Positions 45,099 through 61,282 of a DNA stretch of 64,000 nt are shown one piece after another (the stretch's first letter is position 1; every line of letters starts with the position of its first letter). Location: assembly GCA_965205915.1 (NCBI GenBank), contig OZ242191.1, positions 21,410 to 85,409 on the forward strand, written 5' to 3'. Source of the DNA: Dehalococcoidia bacterium. GTDB lineage: Bacteria > Chloroflexota > Dehalococcoidia > UBA6926. A program made the position numbers and the translations under genes. The notes under the pieces were generated by a model. That model saw nothing but the letters and a program-made list of their open reading frames with translations, was not told the DNA's origin and did not search any database.

Positions 45099-47258
45099 GT
45101 GGCTAGCAAGGACACGCCAGTGGCAGTCAACGGTTTGGTTTCCAGTCCGACAATCGTGACGGTTGCCATTGGCTTCGTCATCCTCCTTGTCATTCTCGGT
45201 GGCGGCTGTTCGAGTGACACAGGGGACGTAACGAATGAGGGAGCCGATAGGAGAATCGAGAGCGAGACTGATGTCGGTGATGGCGAGACCACCGTAACAG
45301 CTAACGCGGAGAATGACTCGGTTATCCGTACTAGCCTAAATTTCAGTGACCTTGAAGACGATCGATATGCCGTGCCTTCACTTGAGCGTCGCATTTTCGA
45401 GTCTGATGTGGTCGTTCACGCGGCAGTCATCGGTGAATACGCAGGAGGTCTCAGGTTCAGAGCGCATGAATACCTGAAGGGGACAGGCGGAGATGAGTTT
45501 TTTGTCAGAGTGCATATCGAGCGTCGAGACATGCAATGGGATGATCGACCTGCGATCCTGCTGTTGCAGGAATCGGATGTAGTGGAAGAATACAATCAGA
45601 CGGCTATTGCAGGAGGGGCGCCCAGCGAGTTCCATTTCTCGATTTTCCCATGGAGCTATATAGGGGACCGGGAATGGAGCTATTCGATCGAAGGCACTAG
45701 CCCGCTCTGGCTGCCACTAACAACCACTAGTTCAGATCTGAGCCTTAACAGCCCCGACCGCGAGTTTATAACAGAGTCTGAATCGCCCTTAGGCGAGCGT
45801 CATCCGACCATAACGCTGGGAGAGTTGCGCGACATAGCTGCGTGGCTGCATGGCGGAAGTGGTGTCGATGGTTATGAGCAGTGCATCACCTCAAGCATCG
45901 ACTATATTGATTTCTATCGGAATTGGGAAGGTCTCTTTGGCGAGCAATACAGTGAAGACCCCCTCACCCTTGATACTGAGTCAGGACTAGGGGCCGATCA
46001 TGTGCTGTTGGAGTTTGAGAGCGCCAAGACGCCAGAATACAATCGGGTCTGGCTTACGGGTGCAGATGCTCAGATATTTCGGGATGTGATTGTCGATGAC
46101 GATACTTCTGCTTCAAACGGTTATGAGGAGCAACTCAAGACTGCCAGACCTCTCCCTACAGGCTTTTATCAACTCACCAGCCATATTCAGTTAGCGGAAT
46201 ATTTTCCGTGCCAATTTAATCCAGAGTTAAACAAATTGCCGATTGAAGTCACCGTCGCGGCTCCAGAGGGCACACTACACGAAGCTTTCTTTGATTCGGT
46301 GGCGTTGAGTGGGGGGGGCGTCGGGGCGGCGGGCTCGTCCGGCGTGATTGACCCTGATGAATTCACCGTCAGCAGCGATGACGTCGAGATTGATAGCCTT
46401 GAGTGGGACAGCGGCTCCGTCGTGCTGGAGTTGGATGATTATGTCTCGCTGTCCGGGCAGACGCTGGACTTTATTGAGCTGGACGGCTCCATCGATACGT
46501 TGCTGGCTATCGCCGATGCGACGGTTAATCAGACGGCCGCGACTTGGACATGGAGCGTCACCGGCGCGCCCTGGGAGGATGGCGATCTGCTGATGCTGCG
46601 TATTCGGGAGACGAGCACGGGGCCCACTGTCGTGACGCCCAGGCCCGGCGCTACGTCGTCAACCGATCCAGGAATCGTCATTCCAACGGCCATTGCCCAC
46701 GCCGTCGTCGCATGGAACGAGGCGGTCGCCACGCCCTGGCCCCACGTGCTCTTCTGCGAGGGGAGTGGCTGCACGATAAACGGCGTGGACAGGAATACCG
46801 ACGGCAGGTCGATCGTCATTAACACAGAGTTTGGAACTCGTGAGCGCGGCATCGCACACGTGAAGCCGCCATTTTCTGATGCCCTCGAACACATAAGCGC
46901 CCCGATAATGATCATCGAGGTACCGGCGCGTCGACCTCACCCAGACATTGAAGGGCGTTTCCTGACGATCACCTGGGTCAACGATCCCGATATGCATGAC
47001 GAGAAAATAGACGAAAACAGCCGCCGCCGCTACTACTACGCGCCGAGGACGGTCATGCACGAATTCGGCCATGCTGCGGGCCTGGAAGACCTGTATCTGC
47101 TTGAGGGCGGATGGTGCAATAACTTCGGCATATGCAGCTACCCCGACTACATCATGGGTAGGGCCGAGAAGCCGACAGCAATTCCGAACGAGGATCGGGA
47201 CTACCTCCGGGACGTATATTACAACCATACGCCGCATCCGGTTTCGTCAGGGCAGTGA
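45099..47258 (+). CDS. Lipoprotein: paralog-family N-module + shared C-module + C-terminal snapalysin-like (HEXXHXXGXXD) metallopeptidase domain
   Basis: GTG start 6 nt after AGGAGG. Lipobox LVILGGGC. Shared module VTVAAPEGTLHEAFFDSVALSGGGVGAAGSSGVIDPDEFTV...WEDGDLLMLRIRETSTGPT, then ...YYYAPRTVMHEFGHAAGLEDLY...YIMG. Confidence 0.7.
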   Translation: MASKDTPVAVNGLVSSPTIVTVAIGFVILLVILGGGCSSDTGDVTNEGADRRIESETDVGDGETTVTANAENDSVIRTSLNFSDLEDDRYAVPSLERRIFESDVVVHAAVIGEYAGGLRFRAHEYLKGTGGDEFFVRVHIERRDMQWDDRPAILLLQESDVVEEYNQTAIAGGAPSEFHFSIFPWSYIGDREWSYSIEGTSPLWLPLTTTSSDLSLNSPDREFITESESPLGERHPTITLGELRDIAAWLHGGSGVDGYEQCITSSIDYIDFYRNWEGLFGEQYSEDPLTLDTESGLGADHVLLEFESAKTPEYNRVWLTGADAQIFRDVIVDDDTSASNGYEEQLKTARPLPTGFYQLTSHIQLAEYFPCQFNPELNKLPIEVTVAAPEGTLHEAFFDSVALSGGGVGAAGSSGVIDPDEFTVSSDDVEIDSLEWDSGSVVLELDDYVSLSGQTLDFIELDGSIDTLLAIADATVNQTAATWTWSVTGAPWEDGDLLMLRIRETSTGPTVVTPRPGATSSTDPGIVIPTAIAHAVVAWNEAVATPWPHVLFCEGSGCTINGVDRNTDGRSIVINTEFGTRERGIAHVKPPFSDALEHISAPIMIIEVPARRPHPDIEGRFLTITWVNDPDMHDEKIDENSRRRYYYAPRTVMHEFGHAAGLEDLYLLEGGWCNNFGICSYPDYIMGRAEKPTAIPNEDRDYLRDVYYNHTPHPVSSGQ

Positions 47259-47272
47259 CAGGAGGTGCAGTG

Positions 47273-59636: not shown

Positions 59637-59650
59637 CAGGAGGTGCAGCG

Positions 59651-61282
59651 ATGTTGGCAATGGTACGCCGAAGACGACGCCTCTACTCCGTTGCTGGAGT
59701 CCTCATAGTCCTGGCCGTGGCGTTGGCAGCCGCCGTCCTCTATGCCGGATCAATGAGTCTGAACGGGAATTCGCCACTGCCGGGCGCGCCTGGAGGCTTG
59801 CAGCGAGAGTCTGGTTGGTATCCTCCCCCCGACTTCCCCCCGACTTCGCTGGAGGAGAGGATAGTGCGGAGTGACGCCATAGCAAGGGTGACTCTGGTAT
59901 CCGCGGCCCAGGTGGTGGAGGAAATCTCCGGATGGCCCAGCCAAGGAGACACTTCGTACGCAAACGCGCTGGAGTTCAGGTTCAATGTACTGGAGCACCT
60001 GAAGGGGAGCGGTGGAAGCGAGGTTGTGGCGATAGCAGTTGACTGGTATGAGTTTTTTGCAACTAGGGCGGAGGCGGGCGCAGGCGCAGAAGACTTCCTG
60101 GGAGAGAGGGACACAAGGTGGGACGCCCGGGAGGCGATAGTGTTCCTGCATGATGACGACCCGTATCTGCCAAGCACCGGGCAAGCGGACAGGTACCTCC
60201 TCTGGTTTCTGCGCAACACCTATGGGCAGGAAATCTACACTATAGCCAGCCCCTCCAAGATGTGGCTGCCGGCGGCGTCTGACAGTCTACCAGTACCAGT
60301 TGACCAGGCGAGGGCATCCAGCGGAGGGACGCAGCGCTTCCTTCTTGAGGAGCCGCCTTCGGGGGGCGGGGCAGTGCTTTCAAGGATGGCGCGGGCCCTG
60401 TCGGGCGATCAGGGCGCGTCGCAGGCCGCCACCATCAACCTGGCGGACATGAAGACAAAGATCGCAGAGCTGGACGCGGAGGTCGGGGAGGGGGACGGCT
60501 CGGAGGAGTACCGGGAGTGCGTCCAGTTCAAGTACGAGTGGGAGAACAATGTAAGCCTAAGGAAGGAAGAACGCGCCGCCCAGGGCGAAGGTTACTACTA
60601 CGAGCGGTACGACCATGCACTGGCCTCCGGGCAGGCGGCGGGCAGCCTGTTCTACACCTACGAGCTCTGGCAAATCTGGGTGATTGACTATGGCGAGACC
60701 ATCCCCAGCAAGTATGCGAGCATGTTCCAGCTGGACGGGCAGGACGAGAACCTTTTCGACGTGGAGTACCCCGGCGAGGTGTCCCCGGAACGTCCCCTCC
60801 CGGCGGGGGACTACAAGTTCTACCTCTTCGCCATGGAACCGGAGGTTCTAGTCTGCGACGGGCTGCCGGATGAGGAGCGGACGAGGTTGGAGCACTTCGT
60901 GACCGTCACCGCTCCCAGTGGGACTCTTCATGAGGCGTTCTTTGACCCGGTGGCTCTGAGCGGTGGCGGTGTCGGGGCGACGGGATCGTCCGGGGTGATT
61001 GATCCTGACGAGTTCACCGTCGGCAGTGATGATGTCGAGATTGATGGCCTGGAGTGGCGGAGCGGGTCGGTGGTGCTGGAGCTGGATGACCATGTTTCGC
61101 TGTCCGGCCAAACGCTGGACTTCATCGAGCTTGACGGGTCTATCGACACTTCGCTGGACTTTGCTGATGCGCTGGTGAATGAGTCTGTTGGGCTGTGGTC
61201 TTGGAGCGTTGATTCGCAGCCGTGGGAGGACGGGGATCTGTTGATGGTGCGGATTCGGGAGACGGATACGGCGGCGGGGTAG
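59651..61282 (+). CDS. Paralog F of the secreted-protein family; recent duplicate of paralog B (N-terminal 400 aa about 95% identical)
   Basis: AGGAGG 7 nt before ATG. MLAMVRRRRRLYSVAGVLIVLAVALAAAVLYAGS... Shared C-module ...VTVTAPSGTLHEAFFDPVALSGGGVGATGSSGVIDPDEFTVGSDDVEIDGLEWRSG...RIRETDTAAG*. Confidence 0.7.
   Translation: MLAMVRRRRRLYSVAGVLIVLAVALAAAVLYAGSMSLNGNSPLPGAPGGLQRESGWYPPPDFPPTSLEERIVRSDAIARVTLVSAAQVVEEISGWPSQGDTSYANALEFRFNVLEHLKGSGGSEVVAIAVDWYEFFATRAEAGAGAEDFLGERDTRWDAREAIVFLHDDDPYLPSTGQADRYLLWFLRNTYGQEIYTIASPSKMWLPAASDSLPVPVDQARASSGGTQRFLLEEPPSGGGAVLSRMARALSGDQGASQAATINLADMKTKIAELDAEVGEGDGSEEYRECVQFKYEWENNVSLRKEERAAQGEGYYYERYDHALASGQAAGSLFYTYELWQIWVIDYGETIPSKYASMFQLDGQDENLFDVEYPGEVSPERPLPAGDYKFYLFAMEPEVLVCDGLPDEERTRLEHFVTVTAPSGTLHEAFFDPVALSGGGVGATGSSGVIDPDEFTVGSDDVEIDGLEWRSGSVVLELDDHVSLSGQTLDFIELDGSIDTSLDFADALVNESVGLWSWSVDSQPWEDGDLLMVRIRETDTAAG

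Follow-up and report, generated by a model that had tools for sequence, protein, structure and literature searches.

A recombining array of putative surface proteins with a conserved linkage to metzincin genes in a Dehalococcoidia bacterium

Introduction

What do six paralogous genes of no recognized family do side by side in a Dehalococcoidia genome, and how did one part of them come to look like patchwork? The genes, here called A to F, lie on the forward strand between 45.1 and 61.3 kb of a 64,000-nucleotide (nt) stretch of contig OZ242191.1 (positions 21,410–85,409; GenBank assembly GCA_965205915.1), which we refer to as the window. All six are intact in the list of open reading frames (ORFs), and protein alignment shows that they share a unit of three modules designated N, M and C. 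An earlier note, made from the letters of this DNA, had described them as a tandem family of secreted proteins or lipoproteins with a recombining C-terminal module. The best explanation as a whole, to which we would give a probability of roughly 0.55, is that of an undescribed, recombining surface family whose members are tethered partners of metzincin proteases. The conserved linkage to metzincin genes is a feature which the earlier note missed.

Results and Discussion

The N-M-C family

Hidden Markov models (HMMs) for the three modules were built from 68 relatives, and 27 regions, that is, 26 fetched loci and the window, were compared. The module order is always N, M, C (residues ~70–247, 262–412 and 415–540 of copy C). 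All six window genes and each relative in the 26 loci have the complete unit. This order was found in all 27 regions and in 283 of the 373 collected proteins, the remainder being fragments or tandem fusions, and the modules never occurred in any other context. Head-to-tail double units (NMCNMC) are present in seven of the 373 (e.g., L029 6001–9096, P0208 and P0237). The N-module profile matches 1213 clusters at 50% identity, and all named relatives belong to the Dehalococcoidia/Chloroflexi.

Neither copies A–F nor the core of the 68 relatives gave a sequence match in Pfam, NCBIfam or the PDB, and neither the whole unit nor the N-module found anything meaningful in the PDB, whether by sequence or by profile. 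The clusters of relatives carry the name “hypothetical protein” only, the exact copy C protein has no record in the contig index, and no account of the family was found in the literature on bacterial TIMP/NTR-like proteins (tissue inhibitors of metalloproteinases and netrin-like domains) or on metalloprotease systems of Chloroflexi and sponges. The N-M-C proteins are a large undescribed family.

Each of the six begins with a signal anchor or lipobox, as the earlier note had stated, and the consensus blocks which it quoted for the N- and C-modules were reproduced by our alignment. The N-termini are either arginine-rich hydrophobic signal anchors or lipoboxes, the latter in E (LMAGC) and in the related proteins y546, y572, x545 and y628. 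Reading the sequences for motifs, a lipobox-like element was found in 38 of 120 relatives and a signal anchor in the others. The proteins should thus be N-terminally anchored and extracytoplasmic, on the outer face of the membrane. Tails among the relatives include the adhesion-type domains FN3, cadherin and LRR. Those of the six copies differ, as had been noted: A is fused to a metzincin, B and D continue into a Pro/Thr-rich (PT) linker and a truncated FN3-like start, and C, E and F end just 3′ of the C-module.

The mosaic C-module

The C-module comprises 122 codons, rather than the ~115 residues initially estimated, and aligns without gaps across A–F. It is a genuinely shared module, but the near-identity ascribed to it does not hold: pairwise identities are 73–84% at the nucleotide and 78–87% at the amino acid (aa) level, with 79 of the 122 residues invariant and 37 dimorphic. 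The differences are mostly at third positions and involve all base types.

Superimposed on this are runs of identity shared by changing pairs of copies, in agreement with the patchwork originally reported for D/E, C/E/F and A/D. These involve D and E over 60 nt (module nt 108–167), E and F over 47 nt (ending at nt 119), C with F and C with E over 33 and 26 nt at the 3′ end of the module (with the DSQ/MV variant), and A and D over 29 nt (ending at nt 353, around the TGAP/ML variant). Copies C and D are identical over 65 nt (nt 31–95); they had been thought identical right from the module start, but differ at nt 19, 21 and 30.

The pairwise homoplasy index (PHI), calculated on 83 informative sites, was 0.36–0.48 as against 0.58 in permuted alignments. 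None of 5000 permutations was as low (p<0.0002), and 57% of informative site pairs were incompatible. Longest-run permutation tests gave p<=0.002 for A/C, C/D, D/E, D/F and E/F. In six successive windows of 61 nt the copy closest to C is D, D, B, A, A and F in turn. At four-fold degenerate sites of identical residues the copies differ by 0.32–0.52 in the C-module versus 0.60–0.79, which is saturation, in N/M. For B and F this is reversed (0.043 in N/M, 0.44 in the C-module). By the method of Nei and Gojobori (NG86) the synonymous divergence (dS) among the window copies is 0.58–1.6 in the C-module and saturated in N/M. Uniform divergence was not seen, and the PHI and run tests, the synonymous contrasts and the cross-genome dS values described below all bear out the view that recurrent recombination, rather than simple divergence, shaped the module.

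The C-module is also the best conserved part of the unit in distant genomes, scoring 140–210 bits against its HMM versus 40–120 for N and M, and its ratio of nonsynonymous to synonymous divergence (dN/dS) is about 0.1–0.15. Gene conversion acts on top of purifying selection, which explains much of the C-module similarity. Since the module is so strongly constrained it offers a stretch of homology where recombination occurs, and since it is under purifying selection conversion homogenises rather than diversifies it. Recombination is concentrated in the C-module. No silent donor cassettes, reverse transcriptase or template repeat, or invertase were found among the ORFs between 39 and 64 kb, and all copies are complete genes. 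A diversity-generating retroelement or a cassette-type variation system was accordingly rejected. Of the concerted evolution and variation proposed earlier the former is upheld, while there is no indication of a programmed variation system.

Discordant histories of the modules

A search of related genomes yielded two syntenic loci, L025 and L026, in which shared flanking genes enclose three and four family genes, respectively, as against six in the window. Housekeeping genes of these two genomes are 91.5–93% identical to those of the window. The 13 family genes of the three genomes include at least three C-module types.

Three comparisons show that N/M and C have had separate histories. Copies B and F of the window are recent duplicates with N/M 97–99% identical (dS 0.053; dN/dS about 1), as are the 160 nt upstream, yet no two C-modules are more diverged than theirs (dS 1.59). 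Copy D and its ortholog y538 in L026 are 97–100% identical at the nucleotide level over codons 73–417, with an N/M dS of 0.11, whereas the C-module has a dS of 0.80 (62–76% nucleotide identity) and the signal region is 40–75% identical. In both pairs the breakpoints fall at module borders. The third case is the reverse: y538 and y572, adjacent in L026, have saturated N/M (25% aa identity) and C-modules with a dS of only 0.10 (93% aa identity). The N/M cassette of D (54122–55156) matches L026 at ~10217–11250. Because its 97–100% nucleotide identity exceeds that of the housekeeping genes, the comparison suggests a recent transfer between lineages of the cassette alone.

Copy F is a composite. 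In its C-module it is colinear (92%) with the final gene of the array, and with the flank at RNase J, in both related genomes, and its N/M is a recent copy of that of B; F is therefore a resident C-module onto which a copy of 47094–48786 was pasted. This segment corresponds to the last ~54 codons of A and the N/M of B. Upstream of F the junction is still visible as a recombination scar. Its first part (59364–59472) is a 95% copy of the C promoter region and first nine codons (MSRVRALIG), in which a promoter-like site at 59370–59397 duplicates the one preceding C; from the left junction at 59472 onwards it copies the last ~54 codons of the A protease tail. The resulting chimeric ORF of 63 codons (59446–59637) abuts F in the same geometry as A abuts B, so that a truncated C-terminal protease fragment lies ahead of a partner copy.

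Tandem duplication, the wholesale replacement of N/M cassettes and gene conversion over short tracts shape the array, and together account for the patchwork and for the discordant histories of N/M and C. The PT-linker DNA is probably a second recombination handle, which would explain the fusion in A and the tails of B and D. Repeat DNA of the PT-linker type, 78–97% similar, also occurs in other genes of the window (3396–3512, 6480–6603, 18370–18652, 27860–27963, 32287–32533, 33029–33183 and 42796–42873). Through recombination at these scattered repeats domains could be shuffled, as at the fusion point of A.

Two ways of doing without recombination deserve consideration. Were the similarity due only to strong selection on protein or codon usage, the high conservation of the C-module in distant genomes would be expected. 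Its dS, however, runs from 0.10 (y538/y572) to 1.59 (B/F), either independently of that of N/M or counter to it, and uniform constraint cannot yield the PHI result together with shifting nearest partners. Pure purifying selection was rejected on the dS contrasts and is very improbable. With repeats of ~370 nt a short-read assembler might in principle produce collapsed or chimeric copies, but we found no positive evidence of this. The copies differ by 16–27% in the C-module, on which ground collapse was rejected, and by far more elsewhere; every ORF is intact; independent assemblies, some with megabase-scale contigs, repeat both the architecture and the syntenic arrays; and near-identical orthologs of A lie on other contigs. 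An assembly artefact is hardly credible.

Association with metzincin genes

Within the window w696, the gene of a secreted protein ending in a metzincin domain, is followed on the same strand by A, by the protease domain fused to A, and by B. The match of w696 to Pfam Peptidase_M10 is weak (19.8 bits versus a cutoff of 24), a Met-turn follows its HELGHAGGLGH motif, and its catalytic domain aligns with proteases located 5′ of family genes elsewhere. ORFs of at least 150 residues were scanned for the metzincin motif HExxHxxGxx[HD]. It was found in just 14 of 1102 such ORFs, and 12 of the 51 family genes in the 27 regions have a motif-bearing ORF whose end lies immediately 5′ of them in the same orientation. 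If family genes that follow another member of the family are set aside, roughly a third of the array heads have a protease in front of them. The genes are separated by 0–25 nt or overlap. Two of three additional loci repeat the arrangement, one of these two with no more than an 81-residue remnant.

The upstream proteins have in common a catalytic domain of ~200 residues that invariably forms their extreme C-terminus, while their N-terminal parts vary (FN3, He_PIG, PPC or nothing); two exceed the gathering score of Pfam Peptidase_M10 (Matrixin). The fusion in A is kept in the near-orthologs P0142 (94%) and P0143 (90%) from two other lineages and is absent from P0144 and P0145, relatives at 68–78% identity. 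Among the 373 relatives no fusions of family and protease were found other than in these near-orthologs of A.

Predicted folds

Copy C was modelled with AlphaFold2 from an alignment of 68 sequences, giving a mean predicted local distance difference test score (pLDDT) of 86.7 and a predicted template modelling score of 0.81; the models overall have a pLDDT of about 87. The N-module is predicted to adopt an oligonucleotide/oligosaccharide-binding (OB) fold, nearest to TIMP, the N-terminal agrin domain (NtA) and NTR domains in the fold search. The model shows an N-terminal helix, a long A–B hairpin and, as in TIMPs, a five-stranded OB barrel with flanking helices. Foldseek gave TIMP-2 at a probability of 1.00 and NtA at 0.96, and also picked TIMP-1. 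The invariant residues of the module are E, G, G, R, D, R, F, W and P.

The model gives the M-module a helical hairpin and a small beta domain. It contains the only conserved cysteine pair of the unit (C294 and C404 of copy C). The C-module was tentatively assigned, on size and strand count, as an acidic beta-sandwich of 122 residues with a cadherin-like fold, the cadherin domain being a Greek-key sandwich of seven strands. In Foldseek, tandem pairs of extracellular cadherin (EC) repeats aligned across about 240 columns. Its acidic motifs DPDEF, LDD, DFIELDGSID and EDGD are not the canonical calcium set of cadherins (DxD, DxNDN, LDRE), and Pfam Cadherin (PF00028) had no match on the C-module in the 68 members, where Cadherin matches fell in extra tails only. 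The earlier note had recognized neither the N- nor the C-module as a known domain. This is correct as regards sequence, but the predicted TIMP/NTR-like OB fold and the tentative cadherin-like fold are recognisable ones.

Proposed function and alternatives

We propose that the family proteins would be surface-tethered binding partners of the co-encoded metzincins. Binding is suggested by the TIMP-like OB domain, by the close pairing of the genes and by the naturally occurring fusion, and we put the chances of a role as protease partner at about even. A precedent is found in the potempins of the Tannerella forsythia KLIKK-peptidase system, OB-fold lipoprotein inhibitors which are co-transcribed with proteases, including the matrixin-like karilysin, and which protect the producer's own surface (PMC9890683). 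Given this precedent the most economical mechanism would be cognate inhibition or self-protection through the TIMP-like OB domain; that the proteins act as inhibitors specifically can be advanced only tentatively.

The catalytic zinc is chelated in TIMPs by the alpha-amino and carbonyl groups of the mature N-terminus, Cys1-x-Cys3. The TIMP catalytic hallmarks are absent here. This N-terminal chelation mode is impossible, and one would look instead for a loop wedged into the protease as potempins do it. Specificity would be determined by the diversified N/M part, leaving to the conserved C-module a task shared by all copies, for instance calcium-dependent docking to the envelope of the cell. 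The role of additional copies that have no protease would resemble that of orphan protection genes. Taken together, these steps would make the proteins bacterial TIMP-fold, surface-anchored metzincin inhibitors within effector/self-protection modules that include a dedicated, C-terminally placed protease domain of the matrixin-like kind, with orphan copies directed against the proteases of neighbours and N/M exchange as the mark of an arms race, a joint reading that we consider doubtful. If it were true and the hosts were animal-associated, e.g., as sponge symbionts, the proteins could also act on host matrix metalloproteinases.

Several points weigh against protease partnership through a TIMP-like domain. 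Aligned by hhalign with the N-domains of TIMP1–4, the N-module gave a probability of 7% over 24 columns, the TIMP sequences having been entered by hand. The overlap consists of helix 1 and strand A, with SLEExIxxSDVIARV set against HPQxAFCNSDxVIRAK in the TIMP register. With the PDB profile search empty and no Pfam match, sequence homology to TIMP is not demonstrable. In the consensus of relatives the N-module lacks the Cys1-x-Cys3 motif, conserved cysteines and the three disulfides, and it starts 40–70 residues past the lipobox or anchor rather than at the mature N-terminus. It is the M/C part that yields the cadherin EC-repeat matches, which were placed on the C-module by size and strand count. 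Secretion and anchoring were deduced from sequence features, and about three quarters of the family genes have no adjacent protease.

The proteins might instead be a variable family of adhesins or surface antigens, serving attachment to hosts, particles or matrices, or evasion of recognition by phages or hosts, in which recombination supplies variation and the proteases are merely co-located. The FN3, cadherin and LRR tails of relatives, the match of the M/C part to a cadherin-like fold, the differences in copy number and N/M content between close genomes, and the dN/dS of about 1 in the N/M of the B/F duplicates would all suit such a role. The part that recombines is, however, under purifying selection and homogenised (dN/dS about 0.1–0.15, 79 of 122 residues invariant), silent cassettes, invertases and any expression-site logic are lacking, and an abutting protease on the same strand at about a third of array heads, in distant genomes, is too frequent to be coincidence; on balance we think this role unlikely. 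The TIMP likeness might also be generic, the N-module being an OB-fold lectin that binds glycans or other ligands on a stalk, like the B subunits of AB5 toxins. Foldseek, though, independently picked TIMP-2, TIMP-1 and NtA, in hhalign the N-terminal helix and strand A fall into the register of TIMP, and the gene context is one of proteases, not glycan metabolism, so that a lectin seems quite improbable. Tethered partners of metzincins remain the reading we prefer, and the analysis gives about 1,200 unannotated clusters a map of their domains, a fold prediction and, in the adjacent metzincin, a candidate partner.

Organization of the locus

The features of the array and its immediate neighbours are listed in Table 1.

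Table 1. Genes and other features of the N-M-C array (positions in the window)
Feature	Position	Strand	Description
w696	42998–45088	+	Secreted protein of several domains with PT linkers; matrixin-like metzincin domain at the C-terminus (HELGHAGGLGH, 44942–44974)
Paralog A	45093–47258	+	N 45372–45785, M 45801–46232, C-module 46248–46613
Tail of A	46614–47258	+	Short linker and fused metzincin catalytic domain, 214 residues; HEFGHAAGLED at 47058–47090
Paralog B	47255–49171	+	GTG start overlapping the A stop; alternative ATG at 47273
Modules of B			N 47462–47986, M 48047–48508, C-module 48527–48892, then PT linker and FN3-like tail
CoA-transferase family III gene	49538–51967	-	Unrelated, splits the array; NCBIfam matches to formyl-CoA transferase and CaiB-type models
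Promoter-like site 5′ of C	52109–52136		Sequence scan
Paralog C	52184–53809	+	N 52400–52921, M 52970–53419, C-module 53438–53803
Paralog D	53906–55747	+	Likely ATG at 53927; N 54125–54643, M 54695–55132, C-module 55151–55516
Paralog E	55852–57447	+	Lipoprotein (LMAGC); N 56023–56538, M 56572–57051, C-module 57064–57429
w546	57572–59212	+	Lipoprotein-like (LSAGC) helical-repeat protein of 546 aa between E and F; unrelated, not a family member
Recombination scar 5′ of F	59364–59637	+	Self-BLAST and reading of the sequence
Paralog F	59633–61282	+	ATG at 59651; N 59837–60361, M 60422–60880, C-module 60899–61264

The w696 gene stops 4 nt 5′ of A. The FN3-like tail of B is ended by a single in-frame TAG (49169–49171), where the ortholog x684 (L025 3503–5557) has TGG (Trp). 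Beyond it the frame (49172–49440) is still homologous, with 81% aa identity, to the intact x684 tail up to the GGC end. Either a nonsense mutation has occurred recently or the TAG is an error of sequencing; y628 of L026 is likewise truncated, slightly further along. In D the PT linker is followed by a degenerate FN3 start.

The M-module of E carries an inserted loop, DVDGDGRITSG (56890–56925, residues ~346–360), which resembles an EF-hand and matches EF-hand_5 weakly. An acidic insertion in A (residues ~330–345) occupies the equivalent site, and from their sequence both may be extra calcium-binding loops.

The CoA-transferase gene is found at the equivalent position in L025 and L026. Neither the N, M or C HMMs nor Pfam gave a match to w546. 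A secreted protein of 1063 aa, encoded on the opposite strand at 39393–42584 and present at the equivalent place in L026, has many helical repeats of the W-x-DG type and a C-terminal gluzincin-like motif (HEMTH...WWTEG) but no match in Pfam or NCBIfam. It is a putative second, different metalloprotease bordering the array. A real relationship between it and w546 was rejected, the repeat similarity being weak only.

A scan for sigma-70 promoters and terminators did not rise above chance; its only useful signal was the promoter-like site duplicated 5′ of C and F. GC skew is positive (0.05–0.38) in every 2-kb interval across the whole window regardless of gene strand. Outside the array there are direct repeats, 88–94% identical, at 23262–23414/24141–24293, 37200–37376/37826–38002 and 37619–37815/38245–38445, the first pair lying within a run of three ORFs of similar size (22521–23240, 23241–23966 and 24105–24842).

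Comparison with known systems

Mosaic arrays of paralogs and co-encoded OB-fold inhibitors are already known; what would be new is the architecture and the TIMP-like scaffold. If the N-module does inhibit proteases, a TIMP-like scaffold would regulate matrixin-like enzymes outside the Metazoa and, by convergence or very remote homology, this would be a second bacterial pairing of OB-fold surface inhibitors with their proteases after the potempins. The array itself is a clean natural example of a conserved module acting as a recombination handle for the swapping of cassettes, tails and a protease domain between paralogs and lineages.

Like potempin genes, 12 of the 51 N-M-C genes are adjacent to and co-oriented with that of a protease, though in the opposite order: potempins are single domains of 98–132 residues encoded 5′ of the protease, whereas the N-M-C proteins have 500–700 residues in three modules and are encoded 3′ of it in multi-copy arrays. 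Potempins inhibit proteases, whereas the present family is known from its sequences; no sequence similarity was found between the two.

The best structural match of the modelled N-module is the TIMP/NTR group (TIMP-1 to -4, agrin NtA, PCOLCE and the complement C345C NTR domain), with a local echo of TIMP helix 1 and strand A (SDVIARV in the N-module, SDLVIRAK in TIMP). The N-M-C genes associate, moreover, with matrixin-type metzincins, the target class of TIMPs. TIMPs have been described as a metazoan family marked by a free N-terminal Cys1-x-Cys3 and three disulfides (PMC9409782). Unlike them, the N-module lacks both, is not at the mature N-terminus and has no significant sequence homology.

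Polymorphic toxin/immunity cassettes (PMC3482391) also combine a variable secreted protein with an enzymatic C-terminus, a partner gene next to it and extra partner genes in arrays. Unlike immunity proteins, those of the N-M-C family are large and apparently extracytoplasmic and anchored. Neither trafficking domains nor secretion-system genes were seen, and a toxic role of the metzincins is only conjectural. Orphan modules are known from contact-dependent inhibition (CDI) and Rhs systems, and the truncated C-terminal fragment and partner copy 5′ of and at F resemble them.

Arrays of paralogs with mosaic tracts due to non-reciprocal recombination are familiar from Anaplasma msp2, Borrelia vls and Neisseria opa/pil, and in the sharing of such tracts among paralogs the N-M-C array is similar. 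In those systems silent donors diversify a variable region at an expression site, whereas here it is the conserved module of complete genes that is mainly homogenised.

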